From contig CAWFAK010000005.1 in assembly GCA_963813715.1 (NCBI GenBank), positions 352,001-416,000 of the forward strand: a stretch of 64,000 nucleotides of DNA, written 5' to 3'. The first letter of the stretch is position 1, and each line of letters starts with the position of its first letter. Source of the stretch: an uncultured Planctomycetaceae bacterium (lineage in GTDB: Bacteria; Planctomycetota; Planctomycetia; Planctomycetales; Planctomycetaceae). Of this stretch, positions 43,207 through 56,985 are shown one piece after another. Under the pieces are notes generated by a model. It did not search any database, was not told where the DNA came from, and was given only the letters and a program-made list of their open reading frames with translations. The translations under genes were made by a program, and so were the position numbers.

Positions 43207-43254
43207 TTGACCGGTTCCGGCCGATGTTAATACAATCGTTTCATACAAACGGAT
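43207..43254 (+). promoter_or_regulatory. Putative sigma70 promoter with an adjacent palindromic operator for the TetR gene
   Basis: TTGACC (43207-12), 18 nt spacer, TACAAT (43231-36), then CGTTT-CATAC-AAACG (43237-51). Confidence 0.55.
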
Positions 43255-43314
43255 GATGCGAGCGTTTCAGGCGATCGTTCAGAACGTCGCGACGAACACG
43301 GACGACGAATCAAG

Positions 43315-43986
43315 ATGACCATGAAAACCAACGACGACACCGAATATCGCCTGCTGCAAGCGGCCGGCGAGCTGTTTGCGGAAAAAGGCTACGACGGCGT
43401 CAGCGTCCGCGAGATCTGCCAGCGGGCGGGCGCCGGCAACGTGGCGGCCGTCAACTATTACTTCCGCGACAAGGAGCGGCTCTACATCGAGGCGGTGAAA
43501 TCGGCCTGCTCGCGGGGGGACGAAAGCTTCCCTTATCCCGATTGGCCTGCCGGCACCGAGCCGCGGCAAAAACTGATCGACTTCATCCGCGTGCTCACGG
43601 ACCGCATGTTCGGCAACAGCCCGCCGTGGGCCCGCCGATTGTTCTTGCGCGAATTGTCCCATCCGACCGAGGCCTGCACCGAATTCGTGCAGAAGATCGT
43701 GCGGCCGAACGCCGAGCTGTTGGGCAGTATTCTCACCGAGCTATTGCCCAAGGTGCCGCAACGCAAGCGGAGCCTGATCGCGTTCAGCATCGTCGGTCAG
43801 TGCTTTTTCCATCGCTTTGCCCAGCCGATCGTCACCCAGCTCGTGGGCGAGGAAGAAGCCCGCAACTACGACACGGCGCTCTTGGCCGAACATATTGCCG
43901 ACTTCAGCCTGGCGGCGCTGGGCCTGGAACCGGGTAAGAAAAGCCGGCCGCCGCGATCGCGTTCGGCGTCGCGGACGCGGGAGTAA
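43315..43986 (+). CDS. TetR family regulator with a CecR/YbiH-type (DUF1956) C-terminal domain
   Basis: RLLQAAGELFAEKGYDGVSVREICQRAGAGNVAAVNYYFRDKERLY; AFSIVGQC; FSLAAL. Confidence 0.9.
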   Translation: MTMKTNDDTEYRLLQAAGELFAEKGYDGVSVREICQRAGAGNVAAVNYYFRDKERLYIEAVKSACSRGDESFPYPDWPAGTEPRQKLIDFIRVLTDRMFGNSPPWARRLFLRELSHPTEACTEFVQKIVRPNAELLGSILTELLPKVPQRKRSLIAFSIVGQCFFHRFAQPIVTQLVGEEEARNYDTALLAEHIADFSLAALGLEPGKKSRPPRSRSASRTRE

Positions 43987-43990
43987 CGAC

Positions 43991-45133
43991 GTGACCTGGG
44001 TCGCGCTCAAGATGATGACCGGCAATCGCGGCAAGTATTTCGCGATCGTGTTCGGGATCGCCTTTGCCTGCATGCTGATGGGGCAGCAAGCGTCGATCTT
44101 CTGCGGACTGATGCGAAATACCACGAGCCAGATTCGCGACACGACCGGGGCCGACATCTGGGTGATGGACCCCAGCGTGGAATTCGTCGACGACGTCACG
44201 CCGCTGGCGGACAACGATTTGTTCCGCGTGCGGGGCGTGCCCGGCGTGAGCTGGGCGGTGCGGTTCTACAAAGGGCTGGCCCGGGCGCAGTTTTTGGAGG
44301 GGAACTTCAAGCAGTTCATCGTGCTGGGTCTCGACAACGAAAACTTCGTCGGCGCTCCGCAAGAAATGCTGTTGGGATCGCTCGAAGATCTGCGGCGGCC
44401 GGACGCCGTGATTCTCGACGAGTACGGCTATCACTACTTGTGGCCGGGCGAGCCGCTGCGGGCCGGACGCACATTCGAGATGAACGATCGCCGGGCGCAG
44501 GTGGTCGGCGTTTGCAAAACCTCGCCGACGTTCCAGACGTTCCCCGTCGTCTACACCCGCTATACCCAAGCGCTGCAGTATGCACCGCAGGAACGCCGAG
44601 TGCTGTCGTTCGTGTTGGCCAAGGCCAAACCCGGCGTGCCCGTCGCGGATGTCTGCGAGAGCATCCAGGAGCAGACCGGCTTGATGGCCCTCTCGCAGCC
44701 GACCTTTAGCTGGATGACGGTCTCTTATTACATGCGGCGGACGGGCATTCCGGTGAACTTCGCGACGACCGTGCTTCTGGGGTTCATTATCGGTGCGGCG
44801 GTCGCCGGTCAGACCTTTTATCTCTTCACGATCGGCAACCTGAAGCAATTCGGCGCGCTCAAGGCGATGGGCGTGAGCAACGTCCGCATTTTTGGAATGG
44901 TGCTCGTGCAAGGCGCGTTCGTGGGCGTGATTGGCTACGGGATCGGCATGGGAATGGCCGCCCTCGTTGAGACGGTGATGTCACTGACGATCACCACGAT
45001 TCCCCCCGTGTTCTATATGCTCTGGCAGATTCCGGCAGGGACCGCGATTGCGGTCGCGCTGATTATGATCGCAACCACGTTCGTCAGTTTGCATCGCGTG
45101 TGGGTGCTCGAACCCGCGGCGGTCTTTCGTTAG
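43991..45133 (+). CDS. ABC transporter permease (MacB/FtsX, DevC-like), copy 1
   Basis: VALKMMTGNRGKY; ADIWVMDP; GQTFYLFTIGNLKQFGALKAMG; LEPAAVFR. Confidence 0.9.
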   Translation: MTWVALKMMTGNRGKYFAIVFGIAFACMLMGQQASIFCGLMRNTTSQIRDTTGADIWVMDPSVEFVDDVTPLADNDLFRVRGVPGVSWAVRFYKGLARAQFLEGNFKQFIVLGLDNENFVGAPQEMLLGSLEDLRRPDAVILDEYGYHYLWPGEPLRAGRTFEMNDRRAQVVGVCKTSPTFQTFPVVYTRYTQALQYAPQERRVLSFVLAKAKPGVPVADVCESIQEQTGLMALSQPTFSWMTVSYYMRRTGIPVNFATTVLLGFIIGAAVAGQTFYLFTIGNLKQFGALKAMGVSNVRIFGMVLVQGAFVGVIGYGIGMGMAALVETVMSLTITTIPPVFYMLWQIPAGTAIAVALIMIATTFVSLHRVWVLEPAAVFR

Positions 45134-45145
45134 GCCGAGACGACT

Positions 45146-46280
45146 ATGCCCTGGCTGGCTTTAAAGATGTTGTTGGGCGATCGGGCCAAGTATCTGGCCA
45201 TCGTCGCCGGCATTGCCTTTTCCGCGCTGCTCATTGCGCAGCAGTCGGCGATTTTCTGCGGCTTGATGCGGCGGCACGGTGGGCCAGCTGCGCGACGTCA
45301 CGGACGCCGACATTTGGGTGATGGATCCGTCCGTCGAATACCTCGACGAGCTGAAACCGATGAAGGAGAACCACGTCTACCAGGTGCAGGGAGTGCCCGG
45401 AGTGGCCTGGGCCGTCCGCTTCTGCAAGGGGCAGGCCCGCATGAAGCTCTTCGACGGCAAGTATCAACAGGCGATCGTGCTCGGACTGGACGACGCCACC
45501 TTCGTCGGCGCACCGCAAAACATGCTGCTGGGCTCGCTCGCCGGGCTCAAGCTGCCCGACGCCGTGATCATGGACGAGATTGGGTACCGCTACCTGTGGC
45601 CGGGAAAGCCGCTCCAGATCGGCGGCACGTTTGAAATGAACGATCACCGGGCCGTGATCGTCGGAATCTGCAAGGCGAATCGGACGTTTCAAACGTTCCC
45701 GATTCTTTACACGCGCTACAACCTGGCGCTGCAGTACGTGCCGCAGGAGCGGCGCGTGCTCCCCTTCGTGCTGGTGAAGGGCCAACCCGGATTGACCACG
45801 ACGGAAGTTTGTGAGCGGATCACACAGCAGACGGGGCTCGAGGCGCTGCCCCGCGAGGAATTCGGCTGGAGAACCGTCGGCTATTACATGAAGCGGACGG
45901 GCATCCCCATCAACTTTGGACTCACCGTGGTGTTGGGGTTCGTCGTTGGCTGCGCAATCGCGGGCCAGACCTTCTACACCTTTGTCCTGGAAAACATGAA
46001 CCAGTTTGGGGCGTTGAAAGCCATGGGCGTCAGCAACCTGAAGCTCGTCGGCATGGTGCTTTTTCAGGCCCTGGTCGTGGCGACGTTGGGGTACGGCTTG
46101 GGAATCGGACTAGCGGCCTTGTTCGGTGTGCTCACGCAAAACACCGAGGTCTCCTTCTTCCTTCCGTGGCAGGTGCTGGGCCTGACGGCCGTCGCGACCG
46201 CGCTGATTGCCGTCTTGGCCAGCGTGATCAGCATCCGGCCTGTGCTGTATCTCGAACCGGCGGTCGTGTTTCGAGGCTGA
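45146..46280 (+). CDS. ABC transporter permease (MacB/FtsX, DevC-like), copy 2 (frameshift at ~45275)
   Basis: LALKMLLGDRAKY; ADIWVMDP; GQTFYTFVLENMNQFGALKAMG; LEPAVVFRG. Confidence 0.88.
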
Positions 46281-46303
46281 TACGCCTTACTTGAGAGCGG
46301 ACG

Positions 46304-47134
46304 ATGATCTGGCGCAACGCGACAAAACGAGAAACCGACGATTCCGGCACGGTCGGACTGCTGAACGGCCCGACGACCGCCGTCGTCTGTCGCCAGGTGA
46401 CCAAGGAATTCGGCGACGGCGATTCCCGGGTCTTCGCGCTGCGTGGCATCGACCTGGAAGTTTACGGCGGCGAGCTGACGCTGTTGGTCGGTCCGTCGGG
46501 CTGCGGCAAAACGACGCTGATCTCGATCATCGCCGGCCTGCTCGATCCGACGGCCGGCTCGCTGGAAGTGTTGGGGGAAGACCTGAGCCGGATGCGCGGC
46601 GGACAGCTCGTCGATTTTCGCGGCGCCAACGTCGGCTTTGTGTTTCAGCAGTACAACTTGCTCCCCGCGTTGACGGCGGCTGAGAATGCGGCCGTGCCGC
46701 TGATCATTGCCGGCCGTCCCCGCCGGGAAGCCATCGCCAAGGCCCGGGACATTTTGGCGGCGCTCGAGATGAGTGACCGGGCCGACGCCCTGCCTTCGAC
46801 GTTGTCGGGCGGCCAGCAGCAACGGGTGGCGATTGCCCGGGCCCTCGTCCACGAGCCGCGCCTGCTGGTGTGCGACGAGCCGACGGCCGCGCTCGACGCG
46901 CGTTCCGGCCGCACCGTGCTCGACCTGGTGAAGCGCGTGGCCGTGCAGCCGGATCGGGCCGTGATCGTCGTCACCCATGACAATCGAATTTTCGACTTCG
47001 GCGACCGGATCGTCACCATGAACGACGGCCGCATCGAAAGCGTGACAGACCAGAAAAACGCAGGCGGGCCGAAATCCGTCCCGCACAGCGCGTTGGAACC
47101 GCGCGCTTGGCCTTTTGAATCAGGTGAAGCATGA
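46304..47134 (+). CDS. ABC transporter ATP-binding protein (LolD/DevA-like)
   Basis: GPSGCGKT; GFVFQQYNL; LSGGQQQRVAIARAL; CDEPT; VTHD. Confidence 0.93.
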   Translation: MIWRNATKRETDDSGTVGLLNGPTTAVVCRQVTKEFGDGDSRVFALRGIDLEVYGGELTLLVGPSGCGKTTLISIIAGLLDPTAGSLEVLGEDLSRMRGGQLVDFRGANVGFVFQQYNLLPALTAAENAAVPLIIAGRPRREAIAKARDILAALEMSDRADALPSTLSGGQQQRVAIARALVHEPRLLVCDEPTAALDARSGRTVLDLVKRVAVQPDRAVIVVTHDNRIFDFGDRIVTMNDGRIESVTDQKNAGGPKSVPHSALEPRAWPFESGEA

Positions 47135-48057
47135 AAATCAGAATGGGGAAGTTCTTCCTGCCGTTCCTGGCCGCGGGCATGCTGGGCTTTGCGATCTATC
47201 ACGTGGCGATGGCGCAAAAGACGTACACCAAGGCGCCGCCGCCGATCGAACCGCCGACCACTCCGTTCGGCCACACGGTCGCCGGATCGGGCATCGTCGA
47301 GCCGAACAACGAAGCTAGCACGACTTCGGCCATCGCCGTCGGTTCGCAGATTTCGGGGGTGGTCACTCACGTTCACGTGCGAATCAATCAGAACGTGAAG
47401 TTGGGCGACCTGTTGTTTGAGCTGGATAAACGGGCCGCGCTCGCCGACCTGCACGTTCGCGAAGCGCAAGTCGGCGTCGCCGACTCCAACGTCCGCCTGC
47501 AGAAGGACCAGTTGGACCGAGGCGCCAAGCTACTGCCGCGGCAGGCGATCACCGAGCAGGACTACGTCACGCGCGTCGAGAACTACCGTTCGGCGCTGGC
47601 GTCGTTGGAGCTGGCCAAGGTGCAGGTGGAGCAAGGGAAGACGGCCGTCGATCTGCTCGAGATTCGCGCCCCCGTGGACGGCACGATCCTGCAGATTAAC
47701 ATCCGCCCCGGCGAATTCGTGTCGATCTCGGGCAATCAATCGATGATCCAGATGGGCAACATGCAGCCGCTGCACGTCCGCGTCGACGTCGACGAAGAAG
47801 ACCTGCCGCGACTGAAGCTCAACGCGCCGGCCACTGCCAAGATTCGCGGCGACGCCCTCCAGCAGGAGGTGCCGCTGCACTTCGTGCGGCTCGAGCCATT
47901 CGCCATGCCCAAGGTTTCGCTCACCGGAGCTAACACGGAACGAGTCGACACGCGGGTGGTGCAGGTGATCTACGCGATCGAGCCGAACAACAAGCTTGTC
48001 GCCGAGAGGAAGATCCTGGTCGGCCAACTCTTGGACGTGTTCATCGACAGCAAGTGA
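47131..48057 (+). CDS. Efflux periplasmic adaptor (HlyD/MFP family)
   Basis: N-terminal TM; lipoyl halves ISGVVTHVHV...GDLLFELD and IRAPVDGTILQINIRPGE; ERVDTRVVQVIY; ATGA overlap with the ATPase gene. Confidence 0.88.
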   Translation: MKIRMGKFFLPFLAAGMLGFAIYHVAMAQKTYTKAPPPIEPPTTPFGHTVAGSGIVEPNNEASTTSAIAVGSQISGVVTHVHVRINQNVKLGDLLFELDKRAALADLHVREAQVGVADSNVRLQKDQLDRGAKLLPRQAITEQDYVTRVENYRSALASLELAKVQVEQGKTAVDLLEIRAPVDGTILQINIRPGEFVSISGNQSMIQMGNMQPLHVRVDVDEEDLPRLKLNAPATAKIRGDALQQEVPLHFVRLEPFAMPKVSLTGANTERVDTRVVQVIYAIEPNNKLVAERKILVGQLLDVFIDSK

Positions 48058-49144: not shown

Positions 49145-52100
49145 ATGCACTACGTTCCCGACTCGGCCCGCGACTTTCTGCCCGACGGTGCGGCACAGCG
49201 AACGGGATCGGGACTGCCCGGCGGCCGACTTTCCGCCACCAGCTTTCACTACCAGTCCGCACCGGTCTATTTCCTGACACTGATCGTCGGGGCCCTGCTC
49301 GCCGCCGATTTGGTGATCGGCCTGTTTGCCGACCCCGCGTGGTCAGTTTACCGAGCGCCGTTCGGTTTTCGGCTGGCCCTCTTGGCGGCGGTGCTTGGCG
49401 GCGGGCGGATCCTCTATCAGACGCTCGACGGGCTCTTCGAGGGGCGAGTCGGAGCGGAGCTGGCCCTGACGATCGCCGCTTTGGCGGCCATCATGCTTGG
49501 CGAATATATGACGGCCGCGCTCGTGGTCTTCATCGCGCTCTGCGGCGAAAGCGTCGAGGGCTATACGCTCGATCGCGCCCAGTCGGCCATTCGTCGCGTC
49601 TTCGATCTTTGCCCCGCGGTGGCGCATGTCGTCCGCGGCGGGCGCGAGGTGGACGTTCCCGTCGGCGAAGTCGGCGCGGGCGAAACCGTGACCATCCGTC
49701 CCGGGGAGCGCGTGCCCGTCGACGGCACCGTCTCGTCCGGCGTCTCGACCGTCGACCAAAGTGCGCTCACCGGGGAGAGCTTGCCCGCCGACAAACAAGC
49801 CGGAGCGGAAGTCTTCACCGGCACGCTCAATCAATACGGATCGCTGAGCGTAGTCGCCAAGAAAGTTGGGCCCGACACCACGCTGGCGCAAGTCGTCGAA
49901 CTGGTCGCTCAGGCCACGCAGCAGAAGACGCCCCTGGAGCGGACGGCCGATCGGCTGGCCCGTGTCTTCTTGCCCTTCGTGCTGGGCGCGGCAGTGCTGA
50001 CGTTGATTGGCTGGTGGTGGAGCACGGGCGAGTGGCGCGCGGGCTTTCGGCCGGCGCTTGCCGTGCTGGTCGTCGCCTGCCCGTGTCCGCTGATTCTGGC
50101 GACACCCACGGCCGTCATCGCCGCTATGGCGTGGCTGGCGCGCAAAGGCGTCGTCGTGAAGGGCTCGGCCGCGCTCGAGAGCCTGGCCAGTGTCGACACC
50201 ATCGCTTTCGACAAAACGGGGACGCTCACCCGCGGCGAACTCGCGCTCGGCGCGATCGTGGCCTTGCCGCCCTTGTCCGAGACCGAGTTGCTCCGCGTGG
50301 CGGCCATCGCCGAGCGGCGCAGCGAGCACCTCCTGGCGCGCTTGATTGTCCGCGAAGCCGAAGCCCGCAATCTCGTGGTGCCGGGGATCGAAGAGTTCAC
50401 GCTGCATCCTGGCGCCGGCGTGGTGGCCCGCGTCCGCGCGACGCTCTTGGGCCCGTGGGTCGACGAGACGAGCGGCCTGTGTGCGGTGATCGTCGGCAAT
50501 CGCCGGTTGCTCGAAGCGCAACAGGTCGTTGTCGATGCGGCCTTCGAGGCGCAGCTCACCCAAATCGAAGAGAGCGGCGCCACCACGATGCTGGTCGCGG
50601 TCGACGGCCGGCTGCTCGGAGCGATCGGCGTCCGCGATGCGCTCCGCGACGAAAGTCGGTCCGTGATCGCCGAGCTGAAACGCTCCGGTGTGAAATCGTT
50701 CGCCCTGCTCACCGGCGATCGCCCGCAAGCGGCCCGCACCGTGGCCGACGCATTGGGCGTTTTCGACGAGGTCCAGTCCGGCCTGTTTCCCGCCGACAAG
50801 GCCCGCTGGATCGACGAGCAACAGCGACGGGGCCGACGGGTGGCCATGGTGGGCGACGGAATCAACGACGCGCCGGCCCTCGCTGCGGCCGACGTCGGTA
50901 TCGCGCTGGGGGGCGTCGGCAGCGACATCGCGGCCGAGGCCGGCTCGCTGGTGCTGATGGGCGATCCGCTGCGGCCGCTGCCCGGACTGTTGCGACTGTC
51001 CCACGCGCTCGTTCGCAACATTCGCCAGAGCATTTTGATCTTTGCCTTCGGCATGAACGCGGTCGGCATGCTGCTTTCCTCGTTCGGCCTGCTGAGCCCG
51101 GTGCTCGCCGCCGTGTTCCACGAAGCGGCCTCGCTCGCCGTGATGGTCAATGCGACGCGGCTCTTGGGCTTCGAGCGGCTGCAATCATCGACGGCGGCCG
51201 GAGTATGGGAGCAGTTTTCGCGGGGCGCGGAATGGCTCACGCAAGCGCTTTCGCCCAGCCGCTGGATTTTTCGGCTGATCGAGAACCGCGCCGTCGTGCT
51301 GGGCGTCCTCGTGCCGGCGATTGTCTTTGTCTGGCTGTTGTCCGGCATCGTTTGCATCCGCGATAACGAGCGGGCCTTCGTCACCCGCTTCGGCCGGGCC
51401 GAGGCCGATCTGCCCGCGGGAGTCCATTGGCGGCTGCCTGTTCCGTTCGAGCGAATCTATCGCGAGCCGGCCGACAAGCTGCGCACCGTGCAGATCGGCT
51501 TTCGTGGATCCGACGCGCGACCGGCGTCCGACCCTGCCGTGGTCGGCGAACCGATCGAATGGACCAGCGAGCATAACGAAGCGGGTTTCGAGGGGCGTCC
51601 CGACGAGTCGCTCGTGCTGACCGGGGACGAAGTGCTCGTCGAAATGACGGCCGAAGTCCAGTGGCGAATCGCCGACATGCGGCAATACGCGTTCGGATCG
51701 GTTCGCCCTGCCGAGACTCTCCGGACCGTGGCCGAAAGCGTCCTCCGCGGGATGGCCAGCCGGCAAACGCTCGACGGAATTCTCACGGAGCGGCGGCAAG
51801 CGATCGAGGACGATTGCCTGGCGCGGCTCCGCGGTCGCATCAAGCCGCTGGGCCTGGGAATCGAAGTCACCGAGCTGACGCTGCTCGACGTTCACCCGCC
51901 GCGGCCCGCCGTTTCGGCCTATCGCGACGTGGCCGACGCGCTCGAAGAAAAGGAAGAACGCATCAACGAGGCGGAGGCCTATTACGCCGGTCGGCTGTTG
52001 CGCGCGGCCGGCGAACGGGCCGTGCTGATGTTAAGCGATGCGGCTGCTGATTCGAGACAGCGGTTCGATAAAACGACGGCCGGCGGCGTCTCCGGCTGGA

Positions 52101-52600
52101 CGCTGACGGACGCTCTCTGGTCAAAGCTCAATCCCGAGTCGCCGACGACGGAGCTCGTCCTTTCGGGCGAAGCGGCCACCGTCCTGTTGGGTGCGCGAGC
52201 GCAGGCGACGCAAACCACGCAAGCCGCCGGCGGACAGGCCGATCGCTTCAAAGAACTGCTGGGCGCATATCGGTCTCAGCCAGAGCTGACTGGCCGACAC
52301 CTCTATTGGCAGGCGGTCATCGATTCGCTCTCCGGGCGGGCAGTGACGATCATCGACCCCAAGGCGGGCGGCCACAAACGGCTCCTGCTCGGCAGCCCCG
52401 ACGACTTGCGGAACGGCGGCCTGCTCCGCGAGATCGGCTCCGAAGCCCCGTCGACCTCCACGAATCCCACGGACGTGGCAAGCCCAACCGGTGCCCCGAA
52501 CACAACCCCAACTGAGCCGTCGCCAAACGTCCCGTCGGACCGGCCGGCCGAATCCGATCCGTCCAACCGCGGAAGTTCAAACAACGAGTCCAATCGCTGA
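49145..52600 (+). CDS. P1B-type heavy-metal ATPase fused to a C-terminal HflK-like SPFH (band 7) domain
   Basis: One uninterrupted 1151 aa ORF: TGES, ACPCPL, DKTGTLT, TGD, GDGINDAP, VFHEAAS; then a TM segment and RFG...GVHWRLPVP...LTGDE...VQWRI...DVHPP...AYRDV...INEAEAY. Confidence 0.92.
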   Translation: MHYVPDSARDFLPDGAAQRTGSGLPGGRLSATSFHYQSAPVYFLTLIVGALLAADLVIGLFADPAWSVYRAPFGFRLALLAAVLGGGRILYQTLDGLFEGRVGAELALTIAALAAIMLGEYMTAALVVFIALCGESVEGYTLDRAQSAIRRVFDLCPAVAHVVRGGREVDVPVGEVGAGETVTIRPGERVPVDGTVSSGVSTVDQSALTGESLPADKQAGAEVFTGTLNQYGSLSVVAKKVGPDTTLAQVVELVAQATQQKTPLERTADRLARVFLPFVLGAAVLTLIGWWWSTGEWRAGFRPALAVLVVACPCPLILATPTAVIAAMAWLARKGVVVKGSAALESLASVDTIAFDKTGTLTRGELALGAIVALPPLSETELLRVAAIAERRSEHLLARLIVREAEARNLVVPGIEEFTLHPGAGVVARVRATLLGPWVDETSGLCAVIVGNRRLLEAQQVVVDAAFEAQLTQIEESGATTMLVAVDGRLLGAIGVRDALRDESRSVIAELKRSGVKSFALLTGDRPQAARTVADALGVFDEVQSGLFPADKARWIDEQQRRGRRVAMVGDGINDAPALAAADVGIALGGVGSDIAAEAGSLVLMGDPLRPLPGLLRLSHALVRNIRQSILIFAFGMNAVGMLLSSFGLLSPVLAAVFHEAASLAVMVNATRLLGFERLQSSTAAGVWEQFSRGAEWLTQALSPSRWIFRLIENRAVVLGVLVPAIVFVWLLSGIVCIRDNERAFVTRFGRAEADLPAGVHWRLPVPFERIYREPADKLRTVQIGFRGSDARPASDPAVVGEPIEWTSEHNEAGFEGRPDESLVLTGDEVLVEMTAEVQWRIADMRQYAFGSVRPAETLRTVAESVLRGMASRQTLDGILTERRQAIEDDCLARLRGRIKPLGLGIEVTELTLLDVHPPRPAVSAYRDVADALEEKEERINEAEAYYAGRLLRAAGERAVLMLSDAAADSRQRFDKTTAGGVSGWTLTDALWSKLNPESPTTELVLSGEAATVLLGARAQATQTTQAAGGQADRFKELLGAYRSQPELTGRHLYWQAVIDSLSGRAVTIIDPKAGGHKRLLLGSPDDLRNGGLLREIGSEAPSTSTNPTDVASPTGAPNTTPTEPSPNVPSDRPAESDPSNRGSSNNESNR

Positions 52601-52623
52601 ACCTCAGCGCTGAAGTCGAAACC

Positions 52624-53829
52624 ATGATCGATCGTAGTTCGGATCAGTTCGCTCGTACCCCGCCCGACGGACTGAGTCCACCGCCCGACGGCCGCTTCGC
52701 GCGACGCCTCGGGCTCTTTGCGCTGGCGCTCTCCTCGTCGGACTTGCGGCGACCTGCGTGATCTTTGTCGACGAGCGGGAGGCGGTGATCGTCGAGCGGT
52801 TTGGCAGCATTGTGCGAGTTTACGATCGCGAGGCCGACCGTGGAGCCCACTTCAAGCTTCCCTGGCCCATCGATCTGGCCCGCCGCTTCGATCGCCGCGT
52901 GCAGTTGTTCACGCCGTCGGCCCGCGAGATGTTTACGAGCGATAAGAAGAACGTCACGGTCGACGTCTACATCTGCTGGCGAATCGCCCAGCCGCCGGAA
53001 GGTGCCGCCGACGCACCGGGCGAACGGCCCGTGGTGCGCTTCTATCGCGGGCTGGGCAGCAGCGACGTGGCCGAGGCCCGTCTGGAAAGCCGCGTCCGCT
53101 CGATCCTGACGACGGCGCTCGGCCAGGTCGAGCTGAGCCATCTGCTCGGTGTGAAGAATTCCGAGCAGGGCCCGGCGAAGAACGAGACCGGGCCGCTCGA
53201 TCGCCTGTCCGAAACCGTCCGCGACGAAACGCTCAAGCGGGGGAGCGAGTCCGAGTCGCTCCGTGATCGGCTCGGTATCGAAGTCGTCGATCTGCGGATC
53301 ACGCGGCTCAATTTGCCGCAGGGCAACCAGCAGGCCGTCTTCGATCGAATGAAGAGCGAGCGGAAGAAAATTGCCGACCGGTATCGCTCGGCGGGACTGG
53401 CGGAAAACCAGATGCTTCGCAGCCAGGCCGACCGGCAATACAACGAGCTTTTGGCGAAGACTCGGGCCGACGCTGAGCGGATTCGCGGCGTCGCCGAAGC
53501 CGAGGCTGTCCGCGTGCTGAACGCGGCCCACGGGCAGGATCCCGAATTCTACGCCGTGCTCGCGGCGCTCGATGCGTACCGCAAGATTCTCAATGACCGC
53601 ACGACCCTGGTGCTTTCCGCGTCGAGCAGCATGCTCAAGCTGCTGACCGACGGGATCCCCGAGCTGAAGAGCCGGCCCGAGCCGGTGCCTCGCACCACCG
53701 CGCGGCCGCCACTGTCGCCAAACGGCAAATCGCCGACCGGCAAGACGGCGCTCACCCCCAAAAGCGCCGCCCGGCAGCCCCAGCCGCCGGCGTCCGGCCA
53801 TTTCGGGCATGTCGGGAGGGGGCCGATGA
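52624..53829 (+). CDS. hflC: HflC-like SPFH protease modulator (frameshift at ~52735; 3' end inferred)
   Basis: VDEREAVIVERFG; GAHFKLPWP; FDRRV; TSDKKNVTVD; GIEVVDLRITRLNLP; VFDRMKSER; RGVAEAEA; DPEFY. Confidence 0.82.
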
Positions 53830-54916
53830 AGCGCATTGCGCTCGGCGGCGCGCTGCTCGTGGCCGTCTATCTGGCGACTGGCTTTTATGTCGTGCGCGGG
53901 AACGAAAAGGCGGCCGTCCGTCATTTCGGCCGTTTCATCCGGACGCCGGAGAATCGCGTCGCCCTGGAAGGGAGCGGTCTGCACTACACACTGCCGTGGC
54001 CCTGTTCGGACATCGAGCGGATCAACCTCAACGAAGTGCGGACGCTGTCGATCGGCATGGGCGAAGTCGCCGAGCCGGGGGCCGGCGGTTTTCTGCGTTC
54101 GCTCGAGGCGGAGAACCGCTCGCAGTTTCTGACGGGCGACAAAAACATCCTGCATCTGCAGATCAACGCTCAGTATCGCGTGGCCGACCCGACGGTCGAA
54201 GACTTTCTGTCCCGCTCGGCGGCGCCGGAACGCCACCTCGAGCGAATCGTGGAGGCGGTGGCGGCCGGGCTGATCGCGCAGAGCGGAGTCGATTTCGTGC
54301 ACCCGCTCGGCCAGGTCGAGCTGAACGCGTTGTTGACGGCCGGCGTGCGTCGCCTTGCCGAAGAGCAGCGACTGGGTGTGGAAATCGACGACGTGGCGAT
54401 CAATGCCGTCTATCCGCCGATCCTGGTGAAATCGTACTTTCTCGACGTGACGAGCGCTCGGGCCGATAAGATCAATTCCATCAACGAGGGATTGGCCTAC
54501 GCCGAGGCCCGCCATTCCGCCGCGCAGGCCGAAGCCCGCAGCACGCTCGACGAAGCGGCCAGCTACCGTCAGCAGACGGTCGAATCGGCGCGGGCCGAAG
54601 CGGAGAGTTTTTCGCGACTGATCGAACAGTTGCGACACGAGGAACAGTCGGGAGCGGGCGGACGCACTTACGTGCAAGCCCGGCAGATGGCCCTCACCCG
54701 CCGTTATTACGACACGATGCGCGACGTGTTGAAAACGGTCGCGACGAAAGTCCTGCTCAATTCGGGCGAACCGGCCGACCTGACGATCTTCACTCCCACA
54801 GGTCGGCCTCCCGCCGCAGCTCCTTCCGCTGGGCAAGCGCCGACACCCCGGCGCCCGCCGCGACCCGGCGCCCTGCCGCCGGCGGATCGGAAACGCCCCC
54901 GGCCTGGTTGCGCTAG
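53826..54916 (+). CDS. hflK: HflK-like SPFH protease modulator (3' end uncertain)
   Basis: GGGAGGGG RBS and ATG 53826; TGFYVVRGNEKAAVRHFGR; GLHYTLPWP; FLTGDKNI; VYPP; FLDVTSARAD; ARAEAESF; RRYYDTMRDVL. Confidence 0.8.
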
Positions 54917-54997
54917 CGGGTCAAAACTTGACTCATTCCGCGCGAATCGGGCGACATTTTGTGTCGCACCCGCTCAAAATTGCCGATTTTTGAGATT

Positions 54998-56350
54998 ATG
55001 CGGGCTTATCGGCTGTGCGCGGCGATATCGCGGGCCTGGAGCCGCTCGTCAGCGCAACTGCGTTCGCGTGTTACGACACTGGCCCTCTTGGCCAGCCTGT
55101 GCGTACCGCCCGCGGTGCTGGCCGACTCGGGCTCGACCGCGGCCACAACCGCAACTCCAACTGCCGCCGTCGCGCCCGACTCACGCCCGCGGTCGTCCTT
55201 CGCGTACTACGGCATTCTCGGCGAGGTGGCCCGTCCGGGCGTCTATCAGCTCTCGACCGGCTGCACGTTGGGTCAGCTAGTCATTGGTGCCGGCGGCCTC
55301 ACAGGCAACGCGAATGGCAACGCGCGGGTCCTGCGTGGGCGCGGCAGGCTGAACAATTCTTTGTGGCCGCCTCTGAGTCCGCGGTCTTGTCCCCCGGCGA
55401 CTTGATCGTTGTGGGCGTACAGGCATCGCGGTTGGCCGAGCCCAACGGTGCCCGCGCCGGCCGTGGACCATCGCAAGTGCAAATTGGCCTGTTGAACCTG
55501 ATCAGCCGTCCGGTCGTGCTCACGTTGCCTCGCGAGCTCGCGGCGCCCGCGCGGATCGTCGAGTTCCTCGGTCAACCGCCCGCATTGGCGGACGACCTCG
55601 GGATCGTCGGCCCGTCGCGAGCGGAGGTCCGCGCCTCCTTCAGCGCGAACTTTGCGGATGACCGGCTGGCGTCGGGCGCGGTCCTGATTTTTCCTTCGCA
55701 CCGCGTCCGTGTGGCATCGCTGCCCACGCTGCCCGATCCGATTCCACTCCCCGCCCAGCCGCAGTTCCTGGCAGCACCGTCGACTCCGGCGGCGCCAGCG
55801 ACGGAAACGGCTCGCGGCGCGGATGCGCCGTGGACGTCGGTCGCAGCCGCGCCTTATCAGGCGGGCCGCGTTGCCGGCTTTTACCGCGCGCGGTGCCGTG
55901 TGCCGAATCGCTCCGGCGCCGCCGGCCAACGTGGACGCCCCGTCCCCTCAGCAGCTCGAGCGGATGATCTTCGGCTCACTCCCGCGGAACGTCTCGCGAC
56001 AAGAGTGGGACCGCGAAGAGCAACTCAGCGCCGAACGTGCTCGATCGCGTCCCTACATCTTTTTCTTTGTGATCGCCGGAACGGCCACCTTGGCGATCGC
56101 GTTCACGATCGGCTCGATGGGCCTGCGGGGGTTGCGCAGCATTCGCTCGCGTCGGCGGGCGACTGTGGCCGGGCTGGTGCCGCCCGTGCCGACGTTTGCC
56201 GAGCTCACGCCGGGGAATCGCATCCTCCGCGTCGATGTCAACCAACCGCAAACGCGACTGGCGCTCGACCTGGCGGTTTTCGAGCAGGCGCAGGCCCGCC
56301 GTGCGCAGAGAGCGATGAGCCTCCCGGACCACACGCCGAAGGCCGCCTGA
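54998..56350 (+). CDS. Exported SLBB (beta-grasp) domain protein with a C-terminal TM segment (frameshifts at ~55340, ~55880)
   Basis: Signal peptide; YGILGEVARPGVYQL...TLGQLVIGAGGLT...LSPGDLIVV; Pro-rich linker; TM YIFFFVIAGTATLAIAFTIG. Confidence 0.6.
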
Positions 56351-56436
56351 TCGGTCACGCCGTCTCCTCGGAGCGACGCCCGCGTTTTGCGCCGCCGTCG
56401 AGCGACGTGCGATCCGCGCTGTGCTACCCTACGCCC

Positions 56437-56985
56437 GTGGGCGCAACTGTCGTTTACTACGTGTGCGTGACGATTTTGCTGTTGGCGATGGCCGGCGCGT
56501 GGCTGGCCAATTTGTTCGCGTTGCCCGGCAATTGGCTGATCGTCGCGCTGGCCGCGATTTTCGCCTTCGCGTTTCCGGTGTCGGCCGGACGGGGCATTCA
56601 TTGGGCGACGGTCGGCGTCGGCGTGGGTCTGGCGGTTGTCGGCGAGCTCGTCGAGTTGGCTGCCGGCGCTGCCGGGGCGCGACAAACGGGAGCGAGCCGC
56701 CGGGCCATGGTGCTGGCCTTGCTCGGCACGGTGGTGGGCAGCGTGCTGGGCGCGTTCGCGGCGATCCCCATTCCCATCGTCGGACCGATCATCGGTGCCG
56801 TGGGCGGCGGAGCGCTCGGAGCGTTTGCCGGCGCCTACATCGGTGAGACGGCGATCGGCCGCTCGACGGAGCAGAGTCTGGCGGCCGGCAAAGGAGCGAT
56901 GATCGGTCGCCTGCTGGGAACGGCTTCCAAGCTGGTGATCGGCGTGGTGCTGTTCGTCGTCGTCGCGGTCGATGCGCTGATCTAA
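56437..56985 (+). CDS. DUF456 family membrane protein
   Basis: LPGNWL; GASRRAMVLALLG; GALGAFAGAYIGE; GRLLGTASKL. Confidence 0.8.
   Translation: MGATVVYYVCVTILLLAMAGAWLANLFALPGNWLIVALAAIFAFAFPVSAGRGIHWATVGVGVGLAVVGELVELAAGAAGARQTGASRRAMVLALLGTVVGSVLGAFAAIPIPIVGPIIGAVGGGALGAFAGAYIGETAIGRSTEQSLAAGKGAMIGRLLGTASKLVIGVVLFVVVAVDALI

Follow-up and report, generated by a model that had tools for sequence, protein, structure and literature searches.

A conserved planctomycete gene module in which a P1B-type metal ATPase is fused to an HflK-type SPFH protein

The DNA analysed here, a stretch of 64,000 nucleotides (the window) from a soil planctomycete, encodes a genuine fusion of a P1B-type metal ATPase with an HflK-type SPFH protein (K1), followed by genes for an HflC-type protein (C) and for a second HflK-type protein (K2). 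The fusion is conserved, the two downstream genes are dedicated paralogues accompanying it, and the whole set of three, found widely across the phylum, is so far unstudied. The arrangement suggests that HflK-like membrane scaffolds may be built around a transporter.

RESULTS

The fused gene

Gene 1 (49145..52600, plus strand) starts with ATG and is, as the earlier note had described it, an intact ORF of 1151 aa. The P1B ATPase that it was said to carry is indeed complete. Its core (residues 108-673; 49466..51163) scores 550.8 bits with the heavy-metal P1B profile TIGR01525 (cut-off 346), and the Pfam families PF00122 (residues 156-334, 1.1e-53) and PF00702 (350-583, 3.9e-30) are both found. 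TGES, the CPC of M4 (ACPCPL) and DKTGT can be read off the sequence, and M6 carries H-E-x-x-S (FHEAASLAVMVN). No HMA domain is present in the ATPase, and its best PDB matches are CopA, sCoaT, LpCopA and ZntA (336-297 bits). A cytoplasmic linker (residues 674-716; 51164..51292) follows, in which AlphaFold2 (AF2) predicts helices at 683-700 and 705-713 with low pLDDT, and in which S703 and P704 form a conserved S-P motif in invariant alignment columns.

The extra transmembrane (TM) segment that had been placed at about 51290-51360 corresponds to a ninth TM helix (residues 717-735; 51293..51349), which is the top hydropathy peak of the whole protein (2.63), is positioned by AF2 at residues 715-732 and aligns with its counterpart in E. 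coli HflK. Beyond it lies the HflK-type SPFH and coiled-coil part (residues 738-1090; 51356..52414), recognized by Pfam Band_7 (PF01145, residues 738-945, 1.5e-20) and by the hflK profile TIGR01933 (residues 736-973, 150.2 bits, slightly below the cut-off of 159.4). The alignment of the K1 TM/SPFH region covers residues 81-399 of E. coli HflK, in three pieces in the case of chain 7vhp_E, and from alignment and AF2 together K1 holds all the parts of HflK, namely TM helix, SPFH domain, two coiled coils and C-terminal strands. A K1-specific motif in an SPFH loop (E805, W806, H810) occurs in most K1 rows of the alignment and is absent from its K2 and canonical HflK rows. The argument that the extra helix would put the SPFH part on the periplasmic side holds up: the protein has the eight P1B helices plus one, the ninth aligns as in HflK, and C and K2 have brief basic N-termini followed by a single TM helix, the cytoplasmic tail of K2 being almost absent.

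GC3 follows a single frame across the fusion junction. The junction region (51150-51400) is spanned by Logan contigs from four independent soil or rhizosphere runs of four studies, one of the runs being from an RNA library, and these show no indels at 51000-51500.

Genes 2 and 3 in the window and in relatives

Genes 2 (C, 52624..53829) and 3 (K2, 53826..54916), both on the plus strand, are real, but the window copies are broken. The hflC profile TIGR01932 gives gene 2 163.6 bits (above the cut-off of 134.4), and TIGR01933 gives gene 3 121.1 bits (below the cut-off of 159.4). Read literally, the frame opened by the ATG at 52624 ends after 45 codons (TGA 52759-61), and the hflC-like body, from the TM helix onward, sits in a different frame whose earliest ATG, GTG or TTG is the GTG at 52758, beyond most of the TM helix. 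From there a single 840-aa ORF (52758..55280) runs, uninterrupted by any stop, through both the hflC-like part and the second hflK-like part. Because the two parts share one frame, the ATGA at 53826-29 is not a stop/start overlap in the window; nor does the TAG at 54914-16 lie in that frame.

Comparison with a 96%-identical relative (G002) locates three 1-nt differences: a G missing from the window near 52724 (52724..52725, GGG read as GG), an extra base at 53793..53796, which merges the C and K2 frames, and a C missing near 54839 (54839..54842, CCC read as CC), which takes the K2 stop out of frame. At the first site G002 and a further relative (G003) are each one base longer (a G in G002), and the added G is seen in the Logan contigs of all four runs. 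The base at the second site is missing from both runs that cover it (X3 and X11; X1 and X2 do not reach it), and an additional base at the third is present in both covering runs (C in X3, A in X1; the site lies outside X2 and X11). The genes of G002 are clean, with products of 1148 aa, 406 aa (beginning 24 nt downstream) and 362 aa (with an ATGA overlap). Since neither G002 nor any covering public contig has the three indels, they are probably long-read assembly errors; if real, they would mean that the module of the window strain is decaying. The hflC-like gene reported to start 24 nt after gene 1, and the second hflK-like gene reported to be coupled to it by an ATGA, are thus found as described in G002 but not in the letters of the window, for which the earlier note gave the biologically likely gene structure.

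Conservation and linkage

At E<=0.001 gene 1 has 259 database matches; among the 120 best that were listed, 109 share the same three Pfam domains, the ATPase pair plus Band_7. Matches spanning the junction were found in 25 of 41 related genomes, and two further fused genes in G027 and G032; an HflC-type gene is present in all 27 relatives that carry the fused gene. C and K2 directly follow the fused gene at 15 of 20 relative loci. They are non-adjacent at the other five (G023, G028, G033, G038 and L002), and the genome search, which covered the first four, found the C-K2 pair elsewhere in each. A comparison of neighbourhoods revealed no other conserved neighbour genes. The absence of ftsH from the window, already pointed out, extends to the whole contig, FtsH matches being confined to contigs C12, C9 and C2; nor is ftsH linked to the module in any of the relatives with the window's neighbour genes, which are G002, G009 and G003.

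Relation to canonical HflK and HflC

In a tree of 80 rows, K1, K2, C, canonical HflK and canonical HflC each fall on one side of a branch (SH-aLRT 97, 85, 80, 98 and 94, respectively), and the HflC-type and HflK-type halves are separated with an SH-aLRT of 100 each. Canonical HflK and HflC of planctomycetes and gammaproteobacteria cluster with one another and apart from C, K1 and K2 (SH-aLRT 98 and 97), and the trees of K1, C and K2 agree broadly with each other. A search for a canonical pair found no other HflK/HflC in the window's own genome, which is 82.6% complete, and an hflK-hflC pair together with the module in five relatives (G024, G025, G030, G035 and G040). The module is a separate three-paralogue SPFH system, and the description 'its own hflC and hflK' is too simple for it.

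Unfused triples beside a second ATPase lineage

A related layout, in the order K with a long N-terminus, C, K and P1B ATPase, occurs in four planctomycetes (G029, G109, G063 and G061) and in a gammaproteobacterium (G418), whose genes overlap by 4 nt. The five ATPases linked to such unfused triples form one clade and 13 fused ATPases another (100 each, FastTree), and the two are not sisters. Because linked and fused ATPases form separate clades, two pump lineages partner the same SPFH triple. Among the 80 loci kept, the 76 without a fused gene had no SPFH neighbour. In the phylum sample, six K-C-K triples have no ATPase within a downstream flank of 1.5-4.6 kb, so the triple can occur without a linked pump.

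A published locus of similar layout is the Zur-regulated hmtA locus of Pseudomonas aeruginosa (PA2434-PA2439). Like the module, it comprises a P1B ATPase and three HflK/HflC-family genes; mutation of znuA induces it, and its promoter is bound by Zur. The available text of these papers gives no role for its SPFH genes (PMC4542158, PMC8531726, PMC11761036). The SPFH proteins of the gammaproteobacterial locus L124, which has the hmtA-locus make-up going by published descriptions, pair with those of a planctomycete module, a tie between module and hmtA-type loci that comes from the SPFH genes, whose branches here are long and only moderately supported (SH-aLRT 90 and 93). There are also differences. 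In hmtA-type loci the pump has a gene of its own, last in the operon, rather than being fused, the N-terminal domain of the first K is polytopic, spans about 300 aa and matches no Pfam family, and the linked ATPases belong to the other clade.

Metal specificity

In gene 1, the H-E-x-x-S of M6 lines up with HEGST in the P1B-4 pump 7qbz, and M6 does not have the M-x-x-S-S of Cu(I)-type pumps; more remote fused members have H-Q in M6. His-rich cytoplasmic tails were found on three of 22 planctomycete C proteins (13 His in G025, 38 in G040 and 22 in G030), the window's own C being without one, and also on C of the G418 locus; L124 shares this feature with those planctomycetes. In G025 and G032, 10 His are found at the N-terminus of each ATPase. 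From these motifs, and because some C subunits bear His-rich cytoplasmic tails, the pump substrate is probably not Cu(I) but a divalent, zinc-like metal. The likeness to P1B-4 ATPases (sCoaT, 7qbz) includes a short N-terminus without HMA and H-E-x-x-S/T in M6, and the match to 7qbz covers nearly all of the gene 1 ATPase (residues 50-677). However, P1B-4 pumps have SPC in M4 where gene 1 has CPC, the score to P1B-4 is not above that to CopA, and they are without the extra TM helix and the SPFH part.

Predicted K1-C complex

Structure prediction placed K1 and C side by side with ipSAE values of 0.66, 0.67 and 0.66 in three runs, compared with a best of three of 0.00 for controls; contact agreement between runs is 96% or higher, and partner pLDDT does not fall below 73. 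In calibration, 116 of 157 complexes of solved structure attained the mark, against two of 215 mismatched pairs. The predicted interface is long, running along the coiled coils and C-terminal strands. Modelling of this pair yields an HflK-HflC-like contact; since HflK/HflC complexes are already solved, the result reflects likeness to them and may simply reproduce those structures.

DISCUSSION

The explanation that we favour, and consider reasonably probable as a whole, is a three-gene module in which the pump is tethered within a joint assembly of C- and K-type SPFH subunits. The cytoplasmic C-terminus of the gene 1 pump would lead through the ninth TM helix into a full-length, periplasmic K1. 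On the periplasmic face, C would take turns with K-type subunits, either K1 or K2, around a hetero-oligomeric SPFH ring or cage, the pattern known from HflK/HflC. The pump would be a covalently tethered client, either enclosed in a small membrane domain or placed at its wall, and K2 would fill the K positions that bear no pump, giving a mixed K1/K2 stoichiometry. The purpose might be to cluster or stabilize pumps, or to confine metal at the periplasmic mouth of the pump. HmtA is reportedly an importer of Zn and Cu (attributed in reviews to Lewinson 2009, one review saying that confirmation is needed). Given that an hmtA locus of comparable make-up is induced by zinc shortage, the metal 'exit' beneath the cage could equally be an 'entry'.

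It could also be that the module serves as the HflK/HflC of this lineage and acts mainly via FtsH: K1, C and K2 would make up the normal assembly that holds FtsH, and fusion would render the pump a preferred substrate, or a protected client, of FtsH quality control. We regard this as unlikely: canonical hflK-hflC and the module coexist in five relatives, the canonical proteins are separate in the tree, and ftsH is not linked in the window or the three relatives sharing its neighbours. Such a role would nevertheless fit the whole-length alignment of K1 to E. coli HflK, the presence of FtsH genes on three contigs and the fact that the only notable HflK/HflC-like matches in the window's genome are those of the cluster, although at 82.6% completeness a canonical pair may be unassembled. 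Also on that side, eleven same-genus genomes each have at most one hflC match, and ten have one. Alternatively, there may be no joint assembly, the SPFH part acting in cis as an appendage in the periplasm that regulates the pump, targets it to lipid domains or senses metal, with a C/K2 complex merely co-regulated. The C-K2 pairs unlinked from the fused gene in four genomes, the K-C-K triples with no adjoining ATPase and the E805/W806/H810 loop, which could be a ligand site, are points in its favour. We nonetheless hold it to be improbable, as K1 retains the coiled coils and C-terminal strands by which HflK oligomerizes, the long predicted interface with C lies on just these parts, the three trees are broadly congruent and none of the 27 relatives with the fused gene is without an HflC-type gene.

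That the long ORF is an artefact of mis-assembly or a lost stop, or that the cluster consists of decaying pseudogenes in this strain, seems to us highly improbable. The fused ORF is unbroken and in a single GC3 frame, it has hundreds of independent full-length protein matches, short-read contigs span its junction, and the indels are missing from G002 and all covering contigs. The three frame-breaking indels would otherwise point that way, as would an ftsH copy split across frames and a genome that resembles an error-prone long-read assembly (18 contigs, yet 82.6% complete).

The tethered assembly that we favour can be set against two further systems. E. coli HflK/HflC (7vhp, 7wi3) likewise has adjacent genes for K-type and C-type subunits; by profile K1 and K2 are HflK-type, though below the curated HflK cut-off, and C is HflC-type, K1 aligns from TM helix to C-terminal region, and a side-by-side K-C interface is predicted. 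However, it has two paralogues where the module has three, one K with an entire P1B pump at its N-terminus, and the module is phylogenetically separate and coexists with the canonical pair in some genomes. In Mycobacterium tuberculosis, the available description of PacL-Ctp 'effluxosomes' has membrane scaffolds encoded with P1B ATPases clustering and stabilizing the pumps within domains of the membrane (PMC13460109). Dedicated scaffolds co-encoded with P1B ATPases would be common to both systems, an analogy of function only; in that account the PacL proteins, unlike K1, are small DUF1490 proteins facing the cytoplasm, unrelated to SPFH and not fused to the pumps.

Domain organization of the fused gene

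Gene 1 (49145..52600, + strand) is an uninterrupted ORF of 1151 aa with a single GC3 frame over its full length, in which Pfam recognizes an E1-E2_ATPase domain (residues 156–334), a HAD hydrolase domain (residues 350–583) and a Band_7/SPFH domain (residues 738–945). Residues 108–673 constitute a heavy-metal P1B ATPase, with a TIGR01525 score of 550.8 bits that lies above the curated cut-off of 346.25. By hydropathy and in an AF2 model (64-row alignment, mean pLDDT 76.3, pTM 0.59), P1B-type helices are located at approximately residues 43–61, 73–91, 104–117, 121–153, 263–294, 298–333, 611–646 and 652–675, followed by a 40-residue linker with two short helices and by a ninth helix (residues 715–735), which is the most hydrophobic of the protein. 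Beyond the ninth helix the model continues with the strands of the SPFH domain and two long stretches of coiled coil, and closes with short strands at the C-terminus. Judging sidedness from solved relatives, both ends of the ATPase would be cytoplasmic. The ORF, the Pfam and TIGRFAM assignments and the AF2 model confirm the earlier note's description of one intact protein combining an ATPase, an additional TM segment and an HflK-type SPFH protein.

The SPFH half of gene 1, called K1 here, has the layout of HflK (TM helix, SPFH domain, coiled coils, C-terminal segment and an adjoining hflC-type gene), and aligns to the solved E. coli HflK (7vhp_E) in three pieces, namely the TM helix, the SPFH domain, and the coiled coil with the C-terminus, with lineage-specific inserts relative to the E. 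coli protein. Residues 736–973 are HflK-like, their TIGR01933 score of 150.2 bits being slightly below the cut-off of 159.4, and K2, the second HflK-type protein encoded by gene 3 (53826..54916), reaches 121.1 bits. Since both score below the cut-off, K1 and K2 are, as far as profile scores tell, HflK-type paralogues and not TIGR01933 equivalogs. The HflC-type product of gene 2 (C, 52624..53829) scores 163.6 bits with the TIGR01932 hflC model, above the cut-off of 134.4, and despite this falls outside the canonical HflC group in trees.

Reading frames of genes 2 and 3

In the literal window sequence, the frame that begins with the ATG at 52624 is closed by a stop after 45 codons. No start codon precedes the TM helix in the frame of the HflC body, a single frame of 840 aa holds both HflC and the second HflK, and the TAG at 54914–54916 is not in frame. 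Alignment with the 96%-identical relative G002 reveals three single-base differences, near 52724, 53795 and 54840, and G002 carries three clean genes of 1148, 406 and 362 aa, of which the first two are separated by 23 nt and the last two overlap by ATGA. The arrangement originally proposed, an hflC gene starting 24 nt downstream and a second hflK coupled to it by an ATGA overlap, is thus disrupted by indels in the literal window and intact in G002.

Logan contigs of public sequencing runs were compared over 51000–55000; they derive from four runs, each of a different study (three of soil DNA, one of a rhizosphere RNA library), and represent related populations for which strain identity is unproven. 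The RNA-library contigs (run X11) are taken as sequence presence only, not as transcription, and the interpretation leaves out runs with small word shares (X17–X20) as well as regions to which a given run contributes no coverage. The ATPase/SPFH junction, for which a check in reads had been suggested, is crossed without a gap by these contigs from related populations, and one contig over 51000–51501 has zero differences. One 8.7-kb contig covering the whole stretch has exactly three gaps, which coincide with the three indel sites. The extra G near 52724 is present in all four runs, the corrections at ~53795 and ~54840 in two of two covering runs each, and two of the three sites involve a change in homopolymer length. 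The assembly (G000; 7.49 Mb, relatives labelled planctomycete), of which the window is C5:352001-416000, is only 82.6% complete despite its 18 contigs, and one of its three FtsH matches (G000:C2:53396-55163) is split over two adjacent open frames of 424 and 312 aa, probably by another indel. Because of this low completeness with few contigs, and of the ftsH copy split between frames, the three indels in genes 2 and 3 are very probably long-read assembly errors.

The genes that follow, at 54959–56985, also look frame-broken relative to G002: one encodes a signal-peptide protein from ~55000 onward and the other a DUF456 protein that ends at 56985, and the G002 ORFs of 333 and 385 aa are replaced in the window by 148 and 656 aa in other frames. 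These breaks fit an indel-prone assembly.

Conservation of a three-gene module

In 15 of 20 relative loci the genes for C and K2 lie directly behind the fused gene, and in four genomes (G023, G028, G033 and G038) the C–K2 pair lies elsewhere. No conserved neighbours beyond the three genes of this module were found outside the closest relatives. A TetR/CecR-type regulator and a MacB-like ABC exporter set (two FtsX permeases, an ABC ATPase and an HlyD adaptor) are located upstream at 43231–48057, and were considered as module members; among the relatives examined this set is common only to the closest, G002, and the candidates were rejected on that limited conservation. Since nothing beyond the three genes is conserved, the TetR/MacB-type genes are regarded as local neighbours only.

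An ordinary hflK–hflC pair is encoded elsewhere in addition to the module in five relatives (G024, G025, G030, G035 and G040), and without any fused gene in G019 and G034. The question raised in the earlier note, of whether the genome has a separate canonical pair, is therefore answered differently for the window's own genome, in which (at 82.6% completeness) no HflK/HflC beyond those of the module was found, and for these five module-bearing relatives. In an 80-row tree (quick IQ-TREE, SH-aLRT only), K1, C, K2 and the canonical HflK and HflC, with groups defined by context, each form one side of a branch, and the C types occupy one half with a support of 100 and the K types the other; the three SPFH proteins of the module accordingly stand apart from the canonical ones in the tree that the note had envisaged.

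Distribution of the fusion

A protein search with the SPFH part, limited to lengths of 633–2015 aa, gave 259 matches, and among the 120 listed all three Pfam domains are present in 109, the hydrolase and Band_7 domains only (truncated forms) in 10, and Band_7 is missing from one. The E1-E2_ATPase plus Band_7 architecture, for which the note had proposed a search, hence recurs in 109 of the 120 listed relatives. The fused family amounts to hundreds of 90%-identity clusters from soil and water planctomycetes, with Symmachiella dynata, Tautonia marina and Isosphaeraceae among the named carriers, and its names in the sources are generic ('Cu+-exporting ATPase' at JGI, 'cation-translocating P-type ATPase family protein', once 'HflK'). 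Matches at E<=1e-20 were obtained in 25 of 41 related genomes, nearly all of them crossing the junction and most with open frames of 1090–1245 aa, and G027 and G032 carry more distant fused genes. An even sample of the phylum (301 genomes) added five junction-crossing matches (G043, G111, G204, G262 and G281). From these counts the fusion is frequent in some families and not universal. When 601 aa from the ATPase half served as query for the closest unfused pumps, the matches were again mainly fused proteins of 1000–1050 aa, with no named HmtA among them. A profile scan of the relatives' contigs with the full-length alignment caught generic ATPase motifs, such that only four of the 80 kept loci were fused; the other 76 all lacked an SPFH neighbour.

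A 1331-aa protein from the eukaryote set eukprot (P0035) also combines the ATPase and Band_7 domains, and its SPFH part is 52% identical; its presence there likely reflects contamination of the set with bacterial sequence.

ATPase subgroup and candidate metal

P1B ATPases are characterized by DKTGT, by TGES in the actuator domain and by CPx or xPC in M4. In gene 1 these are DKTGT (residues 356–360), LTGES (208–212) and ACPCP (311–315), all invariant or nearly so in 64 sequences, M4 being CPC. In M6, FHEAASLAVMVN (HEAAS) is aligned with HEGST of 7qbz, a P1B-4 pump of solved structure; H659, E660 and S663 are invariant in the 64 relatives, and distant fused members carry H-Q in M6. No HMA domain was found in gene 1.

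Assignment to a known subgroup was considered in two directions. The P1B-4 group is defined by SPC in M4 and an HEGT-type motif in M6, and the combination of CPC in M4 with HEAAS in M6 makes gene 1 a hybrid, because of which it is not filed there. Cu(I) pumps of the P1B-1 group (CopA) have M-x-x-S-S in M6 and Y-N in M5; the TIGR01511 score of gene 1 is 396.4 against 397, and generic CopA-like loci have AMS.SS, of the M-x-x-S-S type, where gene 1 has HEAAS, so that this group was rejected as well. In a PDB comparison, CopA, sCoaT, LpCopA and ZntA score alike (336–297 bits).

The cytoplasmic N-tail of C is strongly His-rich in three families (13 His in 39, 38 in 92 and 22 in 83 residues); such His/Asp-rich tails occur in the HflC-like genes of loci L088, L090, L091 and L124:10013-10996, and two fused proteins (L088, L112) have His-rich ATPase N-termini. 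Canonical HflC tails are 0–6 residues long, and K2 tails mostly 2–6. The M6 motif, together with the His-rich C tails and ATPase N-termini, points to a zinc-like divalent metal for the pump, and we infer that through these tails C would be linked with the pump in the cytoplasm.

HmtA-type loci and unfused triples

At the hmtA locus of P. aeruginosa, three HflK/HflC-family genes (PA2437-2439) lie beside the P1B ATPase gene of HmtA (PMC4542158, PMC8531726, PMC11761036). Loss of znuA raises the expression of these genes 9- to 14-fold (Table 2, PMC4542158), the HflK/HflC-family proteins of the locus rise under zinc depletion (PMC11761036) and the PA2439 promoter is shifted by Zur (PMC8531726); in their passages on the locus, these zinc-homeostasis papers list the three genes without explanation (PMC4542158, PMC8531726, PMC11761036). 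According to reports HmtA is an importer, and one review asks for confirmation of this. A survey of P. aeruginosa SPFH proteins makes no mention of the locus.

Sampling at the order level around Halomonadaceae (151 genomes) and at the family level around G386 (6 genomes) showed that second hflK–hflC pairs are many in the Halomonadaceae-centred sample; 17 of the 18 loci examined there have no ATPase and one, L124 from the gammaproteobacterial genome G418, has an hmtA-type layout. L124 consists of four genes with 4-nt overlaps, encoding a K-type protein whose polytopic N-domain (~320 aa) matches no Pfam family, a C-type protein with a His-rich tail, a second K-type protein and a P1B ATPase of 628 aa. 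The same unfused order (K, C, K, ATPase) is found in the planctomycetes G029, G109, G063 and G061, and for six more K-C-K triples the flank examined is free of ATPase genes; in the phylum sample, four of 10 loci examined are a K-C-K triple followed by an ATPase. In quick IQ-TREE/FastTree trees with long branches, the C and the long-N K of L124 pair with those of G029 (locus L110; SH-aLRT 93 and 90), the third protein is unplaced, and canonical HflC and HflK, whether from planctomycetes or from gammaproteobacteria, cluster together, away from the module (98 and 97).

The gene 1 pump was also considered as a member of the clade of ATPases encoded beside K-C-K triples, and this was rejected, since the five linked ATPases form one clade and 13 fused ones another (support 100 each, FastTree), which are not sisters. 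By these sequence comparisons, two pump lineages go with a single kind of SPFH triple, the first through an operon and the second through fusion, which is a classic pattern for physical partnership.

The linked ATPases of L131, L138, L139 and L140 have unusual M4 motifs (CPV, CPG, LPC, CPT), that of L124 being CPC; their M6 motifs vary as well (H-H, Q-N, H-E, H-N), and this clade may have atypical chemistry at the metal site. The phylum sample also yielded many HflK-like matches from other planctomycete families, with open frames of 590–920 aa, from which the 10 loci above were taken; the rest may include spurious GC-rich ORF extensions.

Predicted assembly and possible function

HflK and HflC form a large alternating ring or cage that binds FtsH. 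A two-chain prediction with K1 residues 700–1095 and C residues 30–385, each with its own alignment, scored 0.66, 0.67 and 0.66, the best of three controls reaching 0.00, with a contact agreement of at least 96% between runs and a partner pLDDT of at least 73. The pair thereby passes a calibration mark that is passed by 116 of 157 solved complexes and by two of 215 mismatched pairs. The predicted contacts extend over the SPFH domains, the two coiled coils and the strands at the C-terminus, as in HflK–HflC. Since HflK–HflC complexes have already been solved, this pass attests likeness to HflK/C, may reflect memory, and says nothing of a ring; of the hetero-oligomer modelling foreseen in the earlier note, this prediction covers the K1–C pair.

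We consider it somewhat probable that the module forms an HflK/C-like hetero-oligomer in which the pump would be tethered to some of the K positions. Such an assembly could serve for clustering or stabilization of the pump, for confinement of metal at the periplasmic mouth, or for hand-over to FtsH. It could also be, though we hold this wider proposal to be rather unlikely, that three-paralogue SPFH rings are purpose-built enclosures of P1B pumps, providing a nanometre-scale periplasmic chamber and a lipid patch for hand-over of metal to or from the pump, that the His-rich tails of C act as the pump's missing metal-binding domain, and that two pump lineages were recruited, by operon (including the Pseudomonas hmtA type) and by fusion. 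If the enclosure proposal were true, the 'caged transporter' would be a general strategy, of ancient origin, for dealing with zinc-like metals.

In the main texts of the literature searched we found no description of an ATPase–SPFH fusion, and the nearest functional analogy to the module is the PacL–Ctp 'effluxosome' of mycobacteria. HflK/HflC, prohibitins, stomatins and flotillins build cages or rings whose contents and purpose are debated, and to our knowledge the FtsH/AAA protease is the sole structurally resolved client of such assemblies. A natural SPFH–transporter fusion would name a second client directly, and offers a taggable, self-assembling complex for cryo-EM. The module further gives a testable role to the HflK/HflC-family genes beside the zinc-regulated HmtA of P. 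aeruginosa, and makes one ask what a cage would do to the release or capture of metal on the periplasmic side.

Two further features of K1-type proteins were observed. A polytopic N-domain of ~290–320 aa, which contains several hydrophobic helices and belongs to no Pfam family, replaces the ATPase in the K1-clade proteins L110:1460-3286 (G029), L124:7907-10000 (G418) and L138:3263-5035 (G109). An insert in the first SPFH subdomain (residues 785–830, nt 51497–51634), where AF2 confidence is low, has invariant E805, W806, H810 and E821; it is missing from K2 and canonical HflK, and most K1 proteins have it, among them the G029 K1 that carries no ATPase.
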